Positions 6,234 through 32,804 of a DNA stretch of 32,804 nt are shown in pieces. The position numbers were made by a program, and so were the translations under genes. The stretch is from a virus. Lineage: Duplodnaviria > Caudoviricetes. The notes below the pieces were generated by a model. It made no database searches, had not been told where the DNA came from, and saw nothing but the letters and a program-made list of their open reading frames with translations. How positions within the stretch are numbered: position 1 is the first letter of the stretch; every line of letters begins with the position of its first letter. Location: IMG/VR virus record IMGVR_UViG_3300037483_000307, positions 1 to 32,804 of that record. One strand, 5' to 3'.

Positions 6234-7202
6234 TTAGGATGCCGCTAATGTGTATTTCTTGAATTGGTCAGGATAAACATATTGTACGCCCAAACGATAT
6301 TTCACATCCAAATAAATTTGGTCGGTTTCGTCTGAATACTTTACGCTAAAATCTTCCCAATCATGCTCCATATCTGTTCCAATGAACATCAAGTCAGTAT
6401 TACCTGCATAAATTGAGCTAGTCCCATTCAATCCGTAAACACATTCAATAATTGTGTTGTAACCATACAATTGAGCTGATAACCCATCATTTTCTAATTT
6501 ATAGTGAAATAAATTTCCGTTAATAACAGCCGCACAATACATATCGAAAACTTCTTTCCCGACAAAAATCTTATGATTTCCTTGCAAAACTTTTAATGGT
6601 AAAGCATTTCGAACAGCCACTAAAATGCCAACAATATTAGCACTTGTGAAAGCAGTTACGCCAGTTGTGTTGATATTTGCAACAGAACCATCTGCATCGA
6701 ATTTTTTCTTAAAGCCATCGTAGTTCAACAGATTTGCAGAAATAGAATCGGTATCGCCTTGCCAAATCCCAACCTCATTGAGTTCTCTGATTTTATCCGA
6801 TTTAAAAGCAATAAGCAAATCTTCATACGCCAAATCTTCACGTTGATTTCTAACACCATTAGGTAAGCCTAATTGTGTCCATTTTCCAATTAAATCTTCT
6901 GAACAATAATTTTCATTTATCATTATTGGAGCGACAACCATGTCAACATCTGTAAACGTGCCACCACCAAGTGCATTTCTGCCGCAAGAAGTCGCTGGTT
7001 GCAACGTGGTTGTCCCGTCAAACAATTTAATTTTTTGCGTTTCTTTAACGCCTTCCATTACTTGAATTAGTTGAGCCGTACGCCCATCATAAATCAAAGC
7101 AGGAATTATCTCGGTCGATTGTTCATCGACATAATCAGTTAAAGAAGACACGGTTATGCCGAACTTTGCTTCAACTAATTTTTTTGTTTTATTTTTTCTC
7201 AT
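6234..7202 (-). CDS. major capsid protein (HK97-like)
   Basis: 322 aa downstream of the protease; E..IWQGD...YDGF.K and FIGTD..D motifs typical of Bacteroidota phage MCPs. Confidence 0.85.
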   Translation of the reverse strand: MRKNKTKKLVEAKFGITVSSLTDYVDEQSTEIIPALIYDGRTAQLIQVMEGVKETQKIKLFDGTTTLQPATSCGRNALGGGTFTDVDMVVAPIMINENYCSEDLIGKWTQLGLPNGVRNQREDLAYEDLLIAFKSDKIRELNEVGIWQGDTDSISANLLNYDGFKKKFDADGSVANINTTGVTAFTSANIVGILVAVRNALPLKVLQGNHKIFVGKEVFDMYCAAVINGNLFHYKLENDGLSAQLYGYNTIIECVYGLNGTSSIYAGNTDLMFIGTDMEHDWEDFSVKYSDETDQIYLDVKYRLGVQYVYPDQFKKYTLAAS

Positions 7203-7204
7203 GA

Positions 7205-8176
7205 TTATTTAGTTTTTTTGGTGAATTTCTTCCAAGTTATGCCACCTTCGGCAATGTTTTGAAATTTTTGTTCCCCTTTTATTTGAGACTTTTCAAAAAC
7301 GGTAAACCTTTCGCTTAAAGCGACAACGCTTTTATTTATTTTTGCCATCGCTTCGATGACTTCTTCAACGGTAATTTCTTCGTCCTTTTCTTCCGCTGGT
7401 AAAATTTCCGTAACCAATCCATCACCGTCAATAGTGATTATCATACCATCTTTACATTCGATTTTACCTGCTGGAGCAGCTACTTTAGTGCCGTCAACAT
7501 CTACAAACATTGCCGTGCCAACAGCTAACTCGCCATCATACATTAAGATAGTGCCGTCTTTACATTCCATTTCAGCAAACTTTTCTTCGCCGAAAATCAT
7601 TTGAAATAGTGATTTTTTCTTATTCATTTTTTTATTTTTTTGATTAGTATTAAATTTTATTGGGATTTGCTCAAATAGACCTTCAATCGAGTAAGCAAGT
7701 CTTCCCTTTTTGATTGTGTTGTAAAGATTTTTATCCTCAACAAAATATGTCATAACATAACTTCCTAATTGTATATTTTGATTGTCTAATGATTTTGGCG
7801 GTCTTGTTGTTTCTGAAACAAAATAACCTTCCATAAACACAACACCGTTGGCAACTTGATTGCTATCGTGCTGTAAATTAACGCTCGATAATAATTGTTG
7901 CTTCGACATTTTTAAAATCATCTTTTCGATTTGTTCTGGATCGAAATAAACATAGAACTGTCCTAGTTCTTGGGTTTTTCGTTCGATTAACTGATTAGCT
8001 GAAATTGCTACACCAGTAATCATCTGCTTATTGTCATCAAAAGAAAAGTAAGTTTGTTTTTTAGACTTATCAAAAGTCATCAAAGCTTTGTTGTGAGCAG
8101 GACTTTCAACTAAGGAGTTGAAAGTTAATCCTGTGCCATCATCCTCTAAATTTACAATTAGCTTAAAAATCTTCAT
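7205..8176 (-). CDS. prohead maturation serine protease (XkdF/S78-like) fused to a scaffold region
   Basis: SLVESPA, FYVYF, NLQH, GSYVM, YSIEGLF protease motifs; acidic C-terminal DGT..APAG..DG scaffold-like part. Confidence 0.8.
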   Translation of the reverse strand: MKIFKLIVNLEDDGTGLTFNSLVESPAHNKALMTFDKSKKQTYFSFDDNKQMITGVAISANQLIERKTQELGQFYVYFDPEQIEKMILKMSKQQLLSSVNLQHDSNQVANGVVFMEGYFVSETTRPPKSLDNQNIQLGSYVMTYFVEDKNLYNTIKKGRLAYSIEGLFEQIPIKFNTNQKNKKMNKKKSLFQMIFGEEKFAEMECKDGTILMYDGELAVGTAMFVDVDGTKVAAPAGKIECKDGMIITIDGDGLVTEILPAEEKDEEITVEEVIEAMAKINKSVVALSERFTVFEKSQIKGEQKFQNIAEGGITWKKFTKKTK

Positions 8177-8180
8177 TTAA

Positions 8181-8188
8181 CAAAACTA
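8181..8188 (-). promoter_or_regulatory. Bacteroidota-type -7 promoter box (TAGTTTTG) for the head genes
   Basis: Matches TAnnTTTG; ATG follows after a 4-nt spacer. Confidence 0.55.
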
Positions 8189-8881
8189 TAAACATAATTT
8201 TGTTATGTTGTTGTTTTTTTTTGAGAAAATTTCATTTGATAGTTCAATTTGTCGGCTTTCGCAATATCTATGCGACTTGTATATGGAAGTATCAACTTCC
8301 ATAACTTTAAAATAACCCACATCGTGAGGTAAGACCGTTATCTTTTTGTTTTGATTTATTGCTTCTAAACCAAAAAGTACATCACTCATACATTTGTCGT
8401 TCGACTTCCAAATTTTTTTAGGATTAAAATATTCAGTTGAAAAAGCAGTTACGCCAGTTCCAGCAACATCAATTAATCTTTCTTCCGTTTGGTTGTTGGC
8501 ACAATGGAAAAATTTATGACCTCCATAGTAGCTGACATCTTTAGCCATGATAATTCTACCATGATGGGAAACTATTGTACTGTGTTCTTTTATTTTTGCC
8601 ACCATATCATTTGCATAATTTGGTGGATAAATAATATCATCATCTAACGTGAAATAATATTCAGGCTCTTTTATTTTTGAAAGGAAATAAAATTTGCCAT
8701 TATCGGTTAAATCAACACCATAAGCAATATGATATTTATCCATCCATCTAGGTATAGTTTCATAGCTATTAGCAAATATTCTTATTTCATCAAACTGATT
8801 TTTAATACTTGCCAACATTTTTTTTAAATGATTAATTCGGCAAGGCATAGTAGCAATGTTAGCTGTTCTTTTCATACACAT
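8186..8881 (-). CDS. glycosyltransferase (GT-A fold)
   Basis: ATMP.R..L..ML.SI..QFD N-terminus, DLTDNGKF, YYFTLDDDIIYPPNY (DxD), GTGV, MSD. Confidence 0.8.
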   Translation of the reverse strand: MCMKRTANIATMPCRINHLKKMLASIKNQFDEIRIFANSYETIPRWMDKYHIAYGVDLTDNGKFYFLSKIKEPEYYFTLDDDIIYPPNYANDMVAKIKEHSTIVSHHGRIIMAKDVSYYGGHKFFHCANNQTEERLIDVAGTGVTAFSTEYFNPKKIWKSNDKCMSDVLFGLEAINQNKKITVLPHDVGYFKVMEVDTSIYKSHRYCESRQIELSNEIFSKKNNNITKLCL

Positions 8882-9428
8882 AAAAATCTGAAAATGAACC
8901 TTGTTTATGGTTTAAACTTTTAAAAGGATTGATTTCTCGTTCGATTAACTTATAACCCACGATGTCCTTTGTGAAGTTGCGAGGGCGTACATGAGCTGCC
9001 ATGCCTTCCATTTCTTCGTTTGGTGAATAAACGATTAAATATTTCGCACCCAATCCAACCAAGTTAGCCATATAATCGTAGTAATCTATATCATTGACTA
9101 AATGGTAAATTACATCTAAACTTAAAATCAATTCAGGAGTTTCTTTTATATCTTTGAACTTGCTGAAAATTTCGCAGTTAACCTTTTGTTTGCATAGGCT
9201 TAAAGCCTTTTCAGATACATCGAACGCAAATATTTTTTCACACTCAATCATGGCTAATTGATTGCCATCGCCACAACCATATTCTAATAAAGAAGTGATG
9301 CCGTTGGTGTCAATAAAATTGTTAATAAACTCCGCCTTATAAGCAGCCAAAAACCCATAGCTACCGTTACCACTATTGCCACCGTTCATGTAACGGTCAT
9401 TCCAATATTTATTAGTGTCTAATTTCAT
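8859..9428 (-). CDS. class I SAM-dependent methyltransferase
   Basis: YW..RY..GGNSG.GS.G, LLEYGCGDGNQL (motif I), DVS, LSLDVIYHLV. Confidence 0.85.
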   Translation of the reverse strand: MKLDTNKYWNDRYMNGGNSGNGSYGFLAAYKAEFINNFIDTNGITSLLEYGCGDGNQLAMIECEKIFAFDVSEKALSLCKQKVNCEIFSKFKDIKETPELILSLDVIYHLVNDIDYYDYMANLVGLGAKYLIVYSPNEEMEGMAAHVRPRNFTKDIVGYKLIEREINPFKSLNHKQGSFSDFYVYEKNS

Positions 9429-10011
9429 TTCCTAAAAATTTTGATGTCATGTTAAAATCGTGAATTTTCAAATAAACGTAACCCTCGTTAATTGTGATAA
9501 CTTTACCAATATGTTTACCCATCATCCCATGAGGTCTGTCATGTACGCATTTCGTCTTTTCACCCCTTTGAACGAGAGCAAGAAACATAGACGTACAATG
9601 TTCGTTATAATCTCTTTCATGCCTGTAGTTAACGCCTTTGTATCTCTTTATTGGTTTGAAATTTATCAAAACATTTTCTTCTCTCTCAGCAATTTTTTTG
9701 ATAAATTCGATGAAAGTTGACACAACCTCATCGTCGCTATCTAACCGAATTTCAACATCGTATTTAAACTTTTCAATACCATCGAAATAGACGTTCAAAT
9801 CTCCAAAGTCTAAATTTTGAATCAACTCCAAATTTTCGGGATGTCCGATATTTCCTAAATGTTCTTTGCAAATTACGAAAATATCAAAATCTTTAAATGT
9901 TTGATTTTTTAATGATGCAATGAAATTATTTTGCATCAATTTCAATCTTGATTTGTCTAACTTTTCAGTATAGCAAAATCTTGTGAATACCGCTATTTTC
10001 ATCTGTACCAA
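9412..10011 (-). CDS. putative glycosyltransferase (rhamnosyltransferase-like, GT-A)
   Basis: VFTRF...R..L....ASL.NQT.KDF and RLDSDD motifs. Confidence 0.7.
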   Translation of the reverse strand: MVQMKIAVFTRFCYTEKLDKSRLKLMQNNFIASLKNQTFKDFDIFVICKEHLGNIGHPENLELIQNLDFGDLNVYFDGIEKFKYDVEIRLDSDDEVVSTFIEFIKKIAEREENVLINFKPIKRYKGVNYRHERDYNEHCTSMFLALVQRGEKTKCVHDRPHGMMGKHIGKVITINEGYVYLKIHDFNMTSKFLGNEIRH

Positions 10012-10622
10012 CTTCTGATTATTTCTATTTGATTTTTCCTTAAATTTTGATATTCTTTCGTGACAATGCCTATTGATTTTTGACCGCTATGTCTGCGATA
10101 GTAAGCAAGTGTTTCATCGACATACCTAAACTTCAAATGATTATATAAACACCTTAGATTAAATTCATACTCCTCCGCTGTCCACAAACTTTCATTAAAC
10201 AAACCCATCTTTTCAAACACTTCTTTTCGATACATCAATGTACCACCATGTACATAATTATTTACTATCATATTTCCAATATTCAAATATTTTTTCAAAG
10301 GTCTGTAAATTATCCCTTTTGAAACGATTTCTTTAAATACAATTGCGTTTCCGTGGATTACATCGGTAGCAGGAGTAAATGCCTTTACACTTTTTTCGAT
10401 TGAATCTTTTGGTAACATATCATCATCACACAAATATTTAATAAAATCGCCTGTACTTTTTTCAATTCCATTGTTAAAATTATGAGACATTGATTTGTGC
10501 GATTGCGAAATAATTAATTCTACATTGCTATACGTTTGATTTTCTACTGATTGGAGGGCTTCATTTAAAAATCCTCTGTCTTTGTTGAACGGGATGATGA
10601 TGCTTACTTTTGGTTTTTTCAT
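9999..10622 (-). CDS. family 2 glycosyltransferase
   Basis: PKVSIIIP, QTY.NVELI, N.GI..STGDFI.YL.DDD, GLFNESL..AEEYEF.LR, YYRRH. Confidence 0.9.
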   Translation of the reverse strand: MKKPKVSIIIPFNKDRGFLNEALQSVENQTYSNVELIISQSHKSMSHNFNNGIEKSTGDFIKYLCDDDMLPKDSIEKSVKAFTPATDVIHGNAIVFKEIVSKGIIYRPLKKYLNIGNMIVNNYVHGGTLMYRKEVFEKMGLFNESLWTAEEYEFNLRCLYNHLKFRYVDETLAYYRRHSGQKSIGIVTKEYQNLRKNQIEIIRSWYR

Positions 10623-21143: not shown

Positions 21144-21191
21144 TTTTATTTAGTTTTTAAAAATTTGTTGCCAACACACATTAAAACGGTG

Positions 21192-21443
21192 TTAACGTAA
21201 AATTCGATTACAATCATCATCATAATCAACATCGTTTGTAAACGTAATTGAAGCTACTTTGTATATATCTTCCATTTTACCTAATTCAATTTCTTCTAAT
21301 CCAAAATATTCATAAATACCTTCTGGCGTACCATCTCCTGACGCATAATACCCGTTCATACGAAAATCTAACAATAACACTTCTGTAATGTTTGGCATAT
21401 TTTTAATTTTTTCTGCCAACTCTAAAAATTTTTCTACTTTCAT
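21192..21443 (-). CDS. hypothetical protein
   Basis: 83-aa acidic ORF; stop lies in a TAAC core. Confidence 0.6.
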   Translation of the reverse strand: MKVEKFLELAEKIKNMPNITEVLLLDFRMNGYYASGDGTPEGIYEYFGLEEIELGKMEDIYKVASITFTNDVDYDDDCNRILR

Positions 21444-21487
21444 TATATTTTGATTTAATAATTAACAAAAACGTTGGTATGCCGATG

Positions 21488-21709
21488 TTATAGGGCTTTT
21501 AAGAACAACACCGCATCTCCTTTATAATCATAAGTCATAAAAAATGGCTTACCACATATACATTTTATTTTTGTTGCCCAGTTTTTGTTTTTCTCACAGC
21601 GGTTTAAATATTTGTCATCCGCATCGCTGTATTCTTTTTTGCAATGCGGACATTTAAAATCCGTTTTGGCAAAATCTAAAAAACCATTTTTTATTTGCAT
21701 CCCTATCAT
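21488..21709 (-). CDS. small Zn-ribbon protein
   Basis: CPHC...C.CGK; start placed at ATG 21709, after the stop of the 21712-21852 ORF. Confidence 0.6.
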   Translation of the reverse strand: MIGMQIKNGFLDFAKTDFKCPHCKKEYSDADDKYLNRCEKNKNWATKIKCICGKPFFMTYDYKGDAVLFLKAL

Positions 21710-21711
21710 AA

Positions 21712-21852
21712 TTATTTGCATTTGCGTAGTTGTTGCTCCCTCCATTGATATACTTTTCTGCGTTTTGCAAACTGCCACCATTTGCAATCGTTCAGTTTAT
21801 AAATGAACGTCAGCTCAATAGTGTAGCGTAGTAGTGAAAATTCTTTTTTCAT
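21712..21852 (-). CDS. hypothetical 46-aa protein; not in the ORF track
   Basis: MKKEFSLLRYTIELTFIYKLNDCKWWQFAKRRKVYQWREQQLRKCK fills the gap after VRR-NUC. Confidence 0.45.
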   Translation of the reverse strand: MKKEFSLLRYTIELTFIYKLNDCKWWQFAKRRKVYQWREQQLRKCK

Positions 21853-29360: not shown

Positions 29361-29771
29361 TTATCTTATTTCTTTTTTAACCAATTCGATTTCTTCTTTC
29401 GTAGCAAATTTGCTAAGCGTTGGACAATTAATGTCCACATTAAATTTTTGATTTAAAAAATTCATATCAAAAATTGTCGAGTTAATTTTTTCAGCGTTAA
29501 AATTTCGTAAATGAGATAATAAACTAAAGGCTTTCAATTCAAACAATGATTGTGCCCCAGAAATTGCGGCCCCTTTTTCTTTATTATAAATTGCTTCTGC
29601 GAAATTGCTTCCATTTCCGTTCATATAATCAATATTATTTTCTTTATCAAAAATAAAAGCATCAAAATTATTTTCGTCAAATACAAGGTAGTCCGTGTCG
29701 TTTGTAAACCTGCTACTGCCTAATGCTCTTAGTGCTTGACCTCCTATTAATATTTTGTTTTTGTAAATCAT
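29361..29771 (-). CDS. minimal nucleotidyltransferase (pol-beta superfamily, AbiEii/MenT/DUF6036-like motif)
   Basis: LIGGQAL..LGSSR.T.DTDYLV (GG.A..R.T.D.D) and a C-terminal LK...D motif. Confidence 0.7.
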   Translation of the reverse strand: MIYKNKILIGGQALRALGSSRFTNDTDYLVFDENNFDAFIFDKENNIDYMNGNGSNFAEAIYNKEKGAAISGAQSLFELKAFSLLSHLRNFNAEKINSTIFDMNFLNQKFNVDINCPTLSKFATKEEIELVKKEIR

Positions 29772-29775
29772 ATGG

Positions 29776-29923
29776 TAAAAGTAAGCAAACTATTTTAATA
29801 TATAACTATAAAACTACAATTATTTTTCAAAAAACGCTGTTTCTGAAAATGAGAGAGATTAATTTAAGACCTTAATTAATTATTAATATTATTTATTTGT
29901 TTGCTTATTTTTACTTATTTTTG
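29776..29923. promoter_or_regulatory. divergent promoter region
   Basis: AT-rich gap between divergent operons; minus-strand TACTTTTA (29776-29783) and plus-strand TTTG(29896)...TATTTTTG(29916-29923). Confidence 0.55.
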
Positions 29924-29949
29924 CTTAATTGTTTAATAAATAAAACAAT

Positions 29950-30237
29950 ATGAATACACCACAGACCCCCCAATTACCTAAACATAGTGTTACCGCAAGT
30001 GCTGTTATAGGCAGGTTTATTTGTTCATTTAAGGGTCATTTTCCTGAGAAATATTTAAACGAAAACGATGGGTGGATTTGCGCTACCAGATGTAAAAGGT
30101 GCCATAGCACTTTGATGGGTGGGTTTACTTGGAAGTTTAAACAAATTCCACCCCCAAATTCAAATGAACAGCAGATAAAAAAATGGGAAAAATATTGTGA
30201 AGATAAATGGCAGTCGCTTCGGGAAACTTGCTACTAA
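29950..30237 (+). CDS. hypothetical protein spanning a GTTA core (cassette-like)
   Basis: C...GH...C.RC Zn-type motif; Val14 is the GTT core at 29989; the stop is the TAA of TAAC at 30235. Confidence 0.65.
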   Translation: MNTPQTPQLPKHSVTASAVIGRFICSFKGHFPEKYLNENDGWICATRCKRCHSTLMGGFTWKFKQIPPPNSNEQQIKKWEKYCEDKWQSLRETCY

Positions 30238-30331
30238 CAGCCTGTGTTATGTTGGTGCGTAGGGTTTTCGAGCGAGGGGCAGTTAAATATTTTAAATTAA
30301 ATTTTTGCGAGGGATTATTAAAACTAAAAAA

Positions 30332-30709
30332 ATGAGAACAATTAAATTTAGGGCTTGGACCGGAAAGGAAATGAGATACGATGTAAACATAAACGATGGG
30401 AAGCCTGTTAGAAAAGGGTACCAATGGTTTAATGAGGAAAATGATGTTCACGATTCAAGCCCATTGCAATATATAGGCTTTAGCGATAAAAGCAATAAAG
30501 AAATATACGAGGGCGATATTGTGGAAATAATACATCCTTGCTGGTCTGCAATTTGTGAAACGAAATTTATAGATGGTGCTTTTTGGTTTATTGAAAAAAA
30601 TAAACCTGAGAACAACTCACAAGTTAGATCAGATAAGTTTTTAAACCAAAAATGGGATATAAAAATAATTGGAAATATTTATGAAACTTCACATCGTAAA
30701 TTAATATGA
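30332..30709 (+). CDS. YopX-family protein
   Basis: MRTIKFRAW, LQYIG..DK...EIYEGDIV, IIGNIYE. Confidence 0.88.
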   Translation: MRTIKFRAWTGKEMRYDVNINDGKPVRKGYQWFNEENDVHDSSPLQYIGFSDKSNKEIYEGDIVEIIHPCWSAICETKFIDGAFWFIEKNKPENNSQVRSDKFLNQKWDIKIIGNIYETSHRKLI

Positions 30710-30960
30710 AAAAAAAAGAAGATTATTTAAACGATTTAGCAAAATTAGCATTTAAAATAGATGATGTTTTGCAAAAGCAACAAGAGCGTTCAGAAAGATT
30801 AGTGCAAATGGCTAGACTTGCAACCCAAGGATTAAAGGAAAGTCCTGAATTTAAAAAATTAGAGCAAGAATTTAAACATCCGCAATTTACAGGTCCAAGC
30901 GAGGAAATGCACGACTTGAGAGTTATAGTTAAGAGATTGCGGAAGTATAAGTTTTTATAA
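30706..30960 (+). CDS. hypothetical protein
   Basis: 84-aa helical ORF overlapping the YopX stop. Confidence 0.6.
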   Translation: MKKKEDYLNDLAKLAFKIDDVLQKQQERSERLVQMARLATQGLKESPEFKKLEQEFKHPQFTGPSEEMHDLRVIVKRLRKYKFL

Positions 30961-31044
30961 AACGCGAGTAAATGTAGCAACTTGTAAACGACCCCCAATT
31001 TGCTATATAAAATGTTAGGGATTGTCATTTAATACTATAAAAAT

Positions 31045-31296
31045 ATGTTTACACTTGAATTAGGGCAAATCGCCAAAGACAAATTAACAGGATTTAAAGG
31101 CATCTTAACCGCAAGGTGTGAGTTTTTAACTGGTTGCAACAGATATTGCATTCAACCGCAGCAATTAAAAGACGGTAAGCCAATTGATAGCATTTATTTT
31201 GACGAAGCTCAAATCGAAATCATCAACGAAGGTATTTCCGAAAAAGATGTACAAGGAGAGAAAAAAGGAGCGTGTTCACCTTGCCCATCGAAATAG
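31045..31296 (+). CDS. phage hypothetical protein
   Basis: LG...KD..TGFKG...AR.EFLTGC..Y...P.....FDE pattern. Confidence 0.7.
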   Translation: MFTLELGQIAKDKLTGFKGILTARCEFLTGCNRYCIQPQQLKDGKPIDSIYFDEAQIEIINEGISEKDVQGEKKGACSPCPSK

Positions 31297-31409
31297 TATC
31301 AACGGGGCTGTTATTAGAACTACAAAATATCAATTAACCACTGCACCCGCAATTTCTTGTAAGCATTTGTTATGCTCTCGTTTTGCGTGTGTGGGCAAAT
31401 CAAACTAAA

Positions 31410-31628
31410 ATGGAAATTAAATACACGAATGACAAAAAAGGTAAGGCACAGAGCTGGGACGCCACAAGTTCATTAACAGAGGGAAATAGTTGGACTAATT
31501 TTGAAGTGCATTTAGAGGGTAGTGCAGTAAATGAATGGTCGGCAAAAATGAACTTGGTAGAAGCTGCTGAAAAACTAATTGGTCACTTGCAGACGTTGTG
31601 CGAGGAGGCAAAGCAAAATGGTGCATAA
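31410..31628 (+). CDS. hypothetical protein in module 31369-31629
   Basis: ATG after an A-rich tract; the stop is the TAA of the TAAC core. Confidence 0.6.
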   Translation: MEIKYTNDKKGKAQSWDATSSLTEGNSWTNFEVHLEGSAVNEWSAKMNLVEAAEKLIGHLQTLCEEAKQNGA

Positions 31629-31637
31629 CGTTGAATT

Positions 31638-31727
31638 ATGAACGAACCAGGAAGCAAAATATACACAAACCTATATTTAGAAGATTTACCAAATGAAAAA
31701 TGGGTAGACACTTTTGGTTATGATTAA
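31638..31727 (+). pseudogene. truncated NUMOD4 (HNH homing endonuclease N-terminus) remnant
   Basis: MNEPGSKIYTNLYLEDLPNEKWVDTFGYD* matches the start of NUMOD4 (E.W..I.GY.G.Y.VSN.GRV) and then stops. Confidence 0.55.
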
Positions 31728-31830
31728 AAAACCAAAGCAAAATATATTAGTAAGTTTTTACCTAATTGGTGAGGTACGAGCGTTGGCAAAAAAATATTTT
31801 AATTATGGGTAAACAAGCACAAACGATTGA

Positions 31831-31870
31831 ATTAACGGATTAAAACTATAAAAATGGATATTGAAACACA
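31831..31870 (+). repeat. 40-bp perfect direct repeat, copy 1
   Basis: attaacggattaaaactataaaaatggatattgaaacaca. Confidence 0.95.
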
Positions 31871-32126
31871 ACTCATGAATGAACTTGCAGAAAATGGCAC
31901 AGAGCTGGGAAGAAAATTATTTCTAAAATGGCAAGAAGAACGAATAAAAACAAAAGAAAGGTTAATAGGAAAACTAAAGGCTGTTAATAATAATTGCGAT
32001 TTAGCCGATGTTAGCGGTTCGTTAGAAGCCGCATCAAGGCAATATCAAAAAGGGTTTAAACAGGCTTTAAAAGACATAAAGACTTACGGATTGGAACAGG
32101 TTTTAGCGTCTTACAATGACTGCTAA
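31854..32126 (+). CDS. hypothetical protein reading through the GTTA core at 32010
   Basis: ...CDLAD|VSGSL...; the stop is the TAA of TAAC at 32124. Confidence 0.65.
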   Translation: MDIETQLMNELAENGTELGRKLFLKWQEERIKTKERLIGKLKAVNNNCDLADVSGSLEAASRQYQKGFKQALKDIKTYGLEQVLASYNDC

Positions 32127-32252
32127 CGGCATTGGGCTAAACGCAGTAGGGGTTTCCTACCTGTAAAGATGGAATGGCAGACAATTTAAGTTTAACTTTG
32201 TTCTTGATTGTTTGGACGACATCCCCCTATTGCGTTTTAGCCCATGTTATGG
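32121..32252 (+). repeat. complete attC-like imperfect inverted repeat
   Basis: TAACggcatTGGGCTAAACGCAGTAGGGG ... CCCCTATTGCGTTTTAGCCCAtGTTA. Confidence 0.8.
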
Positions 32253-32375
32253 GATAGGTGGGGCATAGGTGAATTTGGTTGAAAGCGGAAACGCTGGATG
32301 TACTTCTGACACCGAAGAAGCCGAAAGCTTTGCGCCCCACTTTACCATAACGTTTTGCAGCTAAACGAAGTTATT

Positions 32376-32415
32376 ATTAACGGATTAAAACTATAAAAAT
32401 GGATATTGAAACACA
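32376..32415 (+). repeat. 40-bp perfect direct repeat, copy 2 (start codon followed by an early stop)
   Basis: Identical to 31831-31870; abuts the spanin stop at 32417. Confidence 0.95.
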
Positions 32416-32416
32416 T

Positions 32417-32804
32417 TTAAAATAAACTACGAATTATGGCCCCAACCCCAACTCCAACGAAAAAACTTTTGATTTTTCTTTTCTTTTGTTTCTTTATTTC
32501 CTGGTCTTTTTCGGAAACAATAACCTCATAATTGTCTATTACCGTGTCTTTTATATTGTTTTGATTTTCCAAATTAACGATAATTTCATTTTTTACGGAC
32601 AGATTTTGTCCGCAAATGGAATCGGTTGAATCTTGAATTGCTATTAATGAATCTACGAATTTTTTGGGTAAACATTCTATTGTGTCATTTAAAACCGTAT
32701 CAAAGACGGTCAAATACTTTGTTTTTATCATAACTCGTACGCTATCTTTTCGATTTAACACTTTTTTGTAGTCTTCGTTTAAAGAATCGTTTAAACCGCT
32801 TAAA
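32417..32804 (-). CDS. 3' part of putative spanin (joined to 122..1)
   Basis: Frame open to the window end; coiled-coil region, then KKRKIK plus a hydrophobic C-terminus SFFVGVGVGAIIRSLF. Confidence 0.75.
   Translation of the reverse strand, partial: LSGLNDSLNEDYKKVLNRKDSVRVMIKTKYLTVFDTVLNDTIECLPKKFVDSLIAIQDSTDSICGQNLSVKNEIIVNLENQNNIKDTVIDNYEVIVSEKDQEIKKQKKRKIKSFFVGVGVGAIIRSLF

Follow-up and report, generated by a model that had tools for sequence, protein, structure and literature searches.

Antisense gene cassettes that start inside their own attC-like hairpins: a probable decaying, integron-like array in a tailed phage

The 32,804-bp contig analysed here in full (the window) comes from a tailed phage, with matches to terminase, portal, tape measure, helicase, primase and exonuclease, the last with a RecE-like match. 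Its genes lie on the minus strand throughout, except for a plus-strand island at about 29950–32415. The BT4734-like domain, the Atlas taxa and the taxonomy of genomes carrying the same hairpin point to a host in the Bacteroidota. An initial annotation had read two open reading frames of the island, ORF1 (29950–30237) and ORF3 (31854–32126), as proteins built across recombination cores, with recombination at G|TT swapping N- and C-terminal halves to give combinatorial fusion proteins, or switching modules on and off by frame. By the CALIN criterion of at least two attC-like sites without an integrase, 29950–32415 is such a cluster, with one site intact, another split and several more collapsed or degenerate; neither an attI site nor an IntI integrase was found in the window, and none of the 45 window ORFs scanned matched an integrase. 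The island is a partly decayed, integrase-less array. We put at roughly 0.7 the probability that it is a decaying array of antisense cassettes of a Bacteroidota-type integron-like system, in which crossover would occur at the TAAC end, the hairpin would donate the start codon, and swaps at the Val codon would be rarer.

In both ORFs the GTT core was indeed an in-frame Val codon, at 29989 (V14) in ORF1 and at 32010 (V53) in ORF3, with the arm translated and the stop supplied by the TAA of a CTAAC. In ORF1 a second in-frame GTT follows at 30004 (V19), and all 11 candidate homologs match from V19 onward only. Further, two contigs of run X4 match 29950–29992, diverge on both sides and continue into another body. 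It follows that the leader ends at V14 and the body starts at V19, so that placing the module boundary at the first GTT was correct for ORF3, while in ORF1 the leader ends at 29989 but the body begins at 30004. The 13-codon leader (29950–29988, plus strand) comprises an ATG and an attC-like hairpin's right arm; the matching left arm is missing, none being visible by eye upstream of ORF1. The 15 bp between V14 and V19 (29989–30003) look like the stub of another, lost module, the first GTT probably being that module's start, with a 5-bp microhomology join to the usual leader arm. The ORF1 body, module 1 (30004–30238), runs from the second GTT to TAAC and encodes a Cys/His protein; its ends pair weakly (−7.3, 24/500 shuffles). 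The annotation's statement that modules 1 and 3 need an upstream start stood: the first ATG of module 1 is at 30115, beyond the Cys/His residues common to the family. In the predicted model of ORF1, pLDDT is 60 for residues 1–10, 70 for residues 11–20 and at least 90 beyond. Many of the 53 profile matches, the distant relatives, have a Met only a few residues ahead of the first Cys, so the fold needs no leader. A fold search with ORF1 gave a best Z of 3.6 and no match; its DUF1660-like character by Atlas features (0.91) is a lead only.

Module 3 (32010–32127, plus strand), from V53 to TAAC, is the start-less 38-codon tail of ORF3, with paired ends (13/500 shuffles), no in-frame ATG and one TTG, at codon 28. 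The 52-aa head of ORF3 is encoded in the preceding segment (31831–32009, plus strand), which supplies a long hairpin with its loop and right arm. The left arm and start of the same hairpin lie at 32347–32415 (plus strand); the arm itself persists only as the copy at 32347–32381, which pairs with the right arm at 31979–32013 (−15.0 kcal/mol, 0/500 shuffles); when the window was scanned in 5-bp steps no pairing scored better, the next being −14.6. Neither ORF1 nor ORF3 lies within an intact hairpin in this genome. An exact 40-bp direct repeat opens the first of these segments (31831–31870) and closes the second (32376–32415), and the 545 bp spanned amount in sum to two complete hairpins and two modules. 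We considered that 31831–32415 is a permuted two-cassette circle inserted via a pre-existing 40-bp target. An X2 contig that departs at 31833 argues instead for a derived junction at that end, and the arrangement is equally well explained by one hairpin present in two truncated copies.

The intact attC-like hairpin, at 32124–32248 on the plus strand and reversed relative to the host polarity, has AAC/GTT cores, one extra base and a fold with z about −4 (32118–32255), but its arms are offset by 4 nt; it has no Rfam match, and Rfam on 29700–32804 returned a single match, by chance. It contains a 27-aa ORF (32174–32257) that, as annotated, reaches GTT in frame. The frame ends three codons later, and in the single further copy that the pattern search recovered (locus L246, 98% identical, 1 of 12 matches) it ends 10 codons past GTT, so this ORF builds no protein with a module. 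The other 11 pattern matches were attributed to chance. Downstream lies module 4 (32246–32351, plus strand), about 100 bp, GC-rich and without Rfam match, with paired ends (2/500 shuffles) and, in the frame of the leader, no body. Other modules of this kind, GC-rich, lacking an ORF, about 100–110 bp long and with paired ends, recur at L246:711–821 and upstream of the L034 and L054 sites, and are possibly small structured RNA cassettes; the L034 and L054 upstream modules include a stretch that we take to resemble a tRNA T-loop.

The rest of the island is made of further site remnants and self-starting genes, all on the plus strand. A collapsed site at 30234–30249, TAAC to GTT in 16 bp and without a leader, is followed by a self-starting YopX gene (30332–30709) and a gene at 30706–30960. 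A degenerate hairpin (30957–31017), whose arm at 30991–31009 is present with another module in an X3 contig, precedes a self-starting gene at 31045–31296 (phrog_16275). The module at 31369–31629 starts at its own ATG (31410) and has paired ends (−13.1 kcal/mol, 0/500 shuffles); end pairing in the window is strong for this module and module 4, and weaker for modules 1 and 3. The stretch 31625–31830, common to the X2 contig, holds a left arm without its partner, then a remnant of 29 aa and a loop that belongs to another hairpin. The remnant presumably resembles a NUMOD4/HNH start, and the window ORF scans gave it zero family matches. A promoter and terminator scan, of a kind ill-suited to Bacteroidota, stayed at chance level.

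The initial annotation had proposed searching the two halves of each ORF separately, and both halves proved to have different partners, with the junction fixed at Val. Among 26 close ORF1-body proteins, a set that takes in protein clusters 1–3, P0004, P0011 and the protein of the window itself, 19 have one leader type and seven have five unrelated leaders, six leaders in total; by eye count, the junction residue is Val in 23. The ORF3 head was present in nine other proteins (10 of 17 candidates, its own included), with further proteins found by profile (20/722). The 25 proteins with this head have 11 tail types, and Val at the junction in 23, again counted by eye. Atlas gave the head less than 0.8. 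One protein pair (P0148 and P0017) is collinear across head and tail, with 58% identity over 92 residues, and P0148 lacks the hairpin-arm peptide; it may be the gene before or after conversion to the arm-bearing form. These swaps of the window's modules rest on proteins and short contigs: the modules themselves are absent from the viral contigs scanned, protein-seeded scans of viral contigs with ORF1 and ORF3 gave zero matches, and aligned contigs, with patchy cover, displayed no joints. A metagenome scan gave one locus, L107, where the arm is collapsed and the left arm missing, and in cultured-phage records the island match was limited to 58 bp of YopX.

Viral contigs were searched with the left-arm motif, which gave 105 stretches, 92 of them distinct; 72 were kept with their partner arm, and 20 without a scored right arm were dropped. 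Cultured-phage records had zero matches to the common hairpin. One leader family was found ahead of dozens of unrelated bodies. Of 67 distinct bodies from other phages, 59 follow a hairpin with an in-frame loop ATG and eight follow a leaderless hairpin. The frame of the GTT was open for at least 30 codons after 57 of the 59 leader-bearing hairpins vs one of the eight leaderless ones (Fisher p 3e-7), and the other two frames were open to that length in 11 and one of the 59; counted from 15 nt past the core, the three frames were open in 57, 14 and two. After all eight leaderless sites a downstream ATG opens at least 40 codons. The annotation's idea that modules are switched off by frame found no counterpart here, since every start-less body keeps the frame of the GTT and the genes behind leaderless hairpins have an ATG of their own. 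The possibility was weighed that the frame match is a by-product, with non-coding hairpins into which gene callers extend ORFs upstream of real starts elsewhere. Near-neutral, poorly folded leaders and the 27-aa ORF without a body would suit it, but Met is absent from codons 3–15 in 51 of 57 bodies, 17 bodies have no Met at all, and of the 65 hairpins with an A-rich loop ATG (71 examined), 63 have the first such ATG in frame with the GTT. With the open-frame difference between leader-bearing and leaderless hairpins, this leaves the by-product explanation hardly any weight. Given the frame bias and the lack of Met in bodies, start donation appears to be a property of the hairpin family as a whole.

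What the leaders encode seems to matter little. By a crude estimate in which pairs are not independent, leader codon pN/pS was 0.85 and 1.17 (34 sequences), 1.18 and 7.2 (10 sequences, the 7.2 being an arm comparison on few changes) and 0.18 (seven sequences), i.e., 0.85–1.2 in three of the four larger leader comparisons. Shared bodies, in five clusters, had 11 synonymous and no non-synonymous differences. The short leaders, usually 19–21 aa, look like start-codon donors that drift nearly neutrally, not functional halves. With pN/pS near 1 and low pLDDT, most of the supposed fusions would be cases of start-codon donation, and the combinatorial library of fusion proteins foreseen by the annotation is not borne out. 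We propose that a few long loops, such as the ORF3 head, encode real protein; between this head and L107 there are six synonymous and nine non-synonymous differences in 44 codons.

Which core is cut was approached through linkage and polarity. Module ends pair with their own partner at 8.7 of 11 positions, vs 4.7 across the hairpin and 4.9 when shuffled (n=48); this shows a circular or folded stage and is compatible with a cut at either end. Among 70 sites with both flanks, a shared downstream body with different upstream DNA was seen in eight clusters and a shared upstream module in one pair, a small count (p 0.039). A free scan for one body gave six loci in four contexts (five of the six contigs were already in the set), with the same hairpin family upstream in all and four different sequences downstream. 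The sequence directly after TAAC differs in all six independent module clusters. L034/L054 and L246, where different modules come after a hairpin, speak against a clean picture. Polarity agreed with the cluster counts. In host loci the G|TT behind the attI-like site is on the opposite strand and matches the TAAC at the 3' end of the gene. All 48 viral loci of at least 2 kb code mainly on the reversed strand, and arm asymmetry is −2 to −4 in seven of eight host sites vs +4, in gene sense, in 70 of 72 phage sites (a value partly forced by the search pattern) and in the window hairpin. Taking linkage, host attI polarity and arm asymmetry together, the G|TT of integron sense is the gene-end TAAC read on the other strand, which makes the Val GTT the inverse core, R''. 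The routine crossover is, as judged from these comparisons, the TAAC end and not the Val GTT, and leader and body would usually move as one cassette.

The annotation's own scheme, extended to the family, makes the Val GTT the main crossover: the cassette would be a body plus its downstream hairpin, and each N-terminus would come from the upstream neighbour, giving combinatorial fusions. Swaps fixed at Val in the ORF1 and ORF3 homologs speak for it, as do the one leader family ahead of dozens of bodies, L034 and L054, which have a common upstream module and different bodies, and the four of eight shared-body clusters in which the hairpin is no more alike than background. We nevertheless consider it very unlikely, for the host attI polarity is reversed, there are no clusters in which the downstream hairpin is kept but the upstream one changed, one leader prevails among the ORF1 homologs, and leaders are nearly neutral. 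Exchange at Val is the part of the annotation's G|TT recombination that survives. Leaders and bodies are shown by the alignments to have been exchanged there over evolutionary time, and, with hairpin likeness at background in those four clusters, leader change is not rare but common on that scale.

A genome scan gave at least 121 stretches, mostly chance; among the matches listed, real hairpins stood beside a tyrosine recombinase in three genomes, where the array genes lie on the other strand. In one MAG contig, L114, an attI-like junction at 7714 comes after the recombinase (6422–7459), and the first cassette there is a phage-type ORF on the opposite strand (7722–7961), its ATG inside its own hairpin; sense genes follow. 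In the stretch L114:5306–7459 the recombinase comes directly after genes that, we presume, encode ribosomal proteins L21 and L27, and it is transcribed toward its array. A close relative of the host enzyme occurred in 25 of 201 genomes of the order scanned. An attI-like G|TT followed the recombinase in 23 of 28 loci, by a pattern relaxed after the sequences had been inspected (a first, too strict version gave 4/28) and which misplaced one of them, L253. Of ten host first cassettes with paired ends, eight hold sense genes, and a clean phage-type antisense cassette was found in one only, L114. A second antisense call, L273, was rejected as not of the clean antisense leader type. The first cassette of L273 repeats exactly from the next G|TT, which supports the host polarity. 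Hairpins of the same family with a similar patch-less recombinase were also seen in Spirochaetota and Patescibacteria records (L129/L130/L116/L183 and L134), and, if the bins are right, the system reaches beyond Bacteroidota.

The host enzyme itself is Xer-like and lacks the IntI patch or insertion. Three host enzymes score 192, 212 and 225 vs the TIGR02249 cut-off of 265, and the L114 enzyme has 29 residues between aligned blocks vs 71 in IntI4. The best family match of the host enzyme is NF040815 (NCBIfam) and its best structures are PDB 5hxy and 4a8e; the closest family and structure matches are XerA/XerC/XerD-like recombinases. XerC/XerD-like recombinases act at a dif site, whereas the host enzyme adjoins an attI-like site and a hairpin-bounded cassette array. 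Searched with the host enzyme, cultured-phage records gave generic integrases only, below 40% identity. The fetched flanks of viral loci L001–L106 contained no recombinase motif, and for that reason action in trans is assumed.

The absence of such an enzyme from the window and from these flanks favors another explanation, that the sites came from host arrays and that within phages all shuffling, at Val included, is homologous or microhomology recombination by phage enzymes with no site-specific step. The window's RecE-like exonuclease fits, the collapsed and truncated sites, 15-bp stub and 40-bp repeat resemble microhomology junctions, and within-family leader swaps have about 25 bp of arm in common. 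However, unrelated leaders join one body exactly at the core with few shared bases, complementary module ends need a circular or folded stage, and the phage-type cassette of L114 sits at attI; we regard this explanation as unlikely. In the antisense-cassette reading that we prefer, each phage cassette would be a hairpin plus the gene downstream, with the ATG in its own hairpin loop and an ORF that would continue across the arm and the Val GTT of the inverse core as far as a stop in TAAC, the true crossover. A host recombinase acting in trans would move whole cassettes by the TAAC-end cut, keeping ORFs whole. Rarer exchange at the inverse core, whether by top-strand recombination or by homologous or microhomology exchange in shared arms and 14-bp ends, would give a body a new leader; the mechanism of these Val-site swaps may be either. 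Selection would keep the frame only, leaving most leaders as dispensable start-codon donors. It is also possible, though doubtful, that the host recombinase cuts both cores, the TAAC end to move genes and the Val GTT to join a ready start codon to start-less DNA in frame, making new cassettes and head-tail proteins like ORF3. The reaction required by the annotation's scheme is the top-strand R'' cleavage described for IntI1 in the accessible text of Nivina et al. 2016 (PMC5027507).

The nearest known relatives are integrons and CALINs, including the CALINs of virulent phages (Qi et al. 2023, PMC9892861), among which the available text lists a Bacteroidota (Polaribacter) phage. That text describes cassettes bounded by GTT/AAC, imperfect hairpin sites and phages without an integrase, as here, and contains neither 'start codon' nor 'in-frame'. 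In the present system, unlike integrons and CALINs, genes are antisense to site polarity, the ORF begins within the site that belongs to it, the two arms have a 4-nt offset and the host enzyme lacks the IntI insertion. The attI1 site offers a second likeness, in that a recombination site gives a translation start to cassettes without their own: as far as the consulted portion of PMC8876359 goes, ORF-11, ORF-17 and ORF-18 of attI1 supply initiation across the core to TIR-deficient cassettes, and the peptide sequence matters little. attI1, though, is a single site that affects the first cassette, for the most part through translational coupling, whereas here each attC-like site has a leader that runs in frame over the inverse core and is fused with the site's own antisense gene. 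Thirdly, the excerpt of PMC5027507 states that IntI1 can cleave the attC top strand in R'', a disfavoured event that inverts the cassette; such a cut would coincide with the Val codon, but R'' exchange here gives intact in-frame genes, and use of this route is conjectural. The R'/R'' naming and the cleavage rule follow the accessible parts of PMC5027507 and PMC5371416. No IntI with the specific insertion was seen in the window or among the host enzymes compared; the hosts alone had an attI-like site beside the recombinase with the first cassette at G|TT. Cassette ends pair mutually as in integrons and CALINs, and the phage genes are antisense with their start inside the site, not whole sense ORFs upstream of attC. 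The system works like an integron or CALIN and, given the failure of the IntI and sense-ORF tests, is not filed as a classical integron.

Phage CALINs and attI1-supplied starts were already known; what is new is an antisense variant of integron/CALIN cassettes. A literature search with subscription journals mostly outside its reach found neither this type of recombinase described nor cassettes that run antisense and begin within attC, and the accessible text of a MITE paper (PMC11602168), PMC5371416, PMC8618304 and an archaeal-integron preprint does not describe the system. How gene cassettes arise is still listed as an open gap in the available part of PMC12901181. Many natural leader–body pairs joined at one codon, together with a candidate enzyme, an attI-like site and defined hairpins, make that question tractable, and cutting of the Val core, if true, would be a visible route of cassette genesis. 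The recombination site doubles as the gene's own translation start, and the system offers a route for host integron-like loci and Bacteroidota phages to trade small genes. The single locus is a decayed example, and the value lies in the system.

Two further patches of the window, both on the minus strand, were noted. A second small cassette-like patch lies at 21150–21790, where short remnants of hairpins separate two ORFs, 21488–21787 and 21192–21443, that each terminate in TAAC, and a block of genes for glycosyltransferases and methyltransferases lies between the head and tail genes at 8186–10622.
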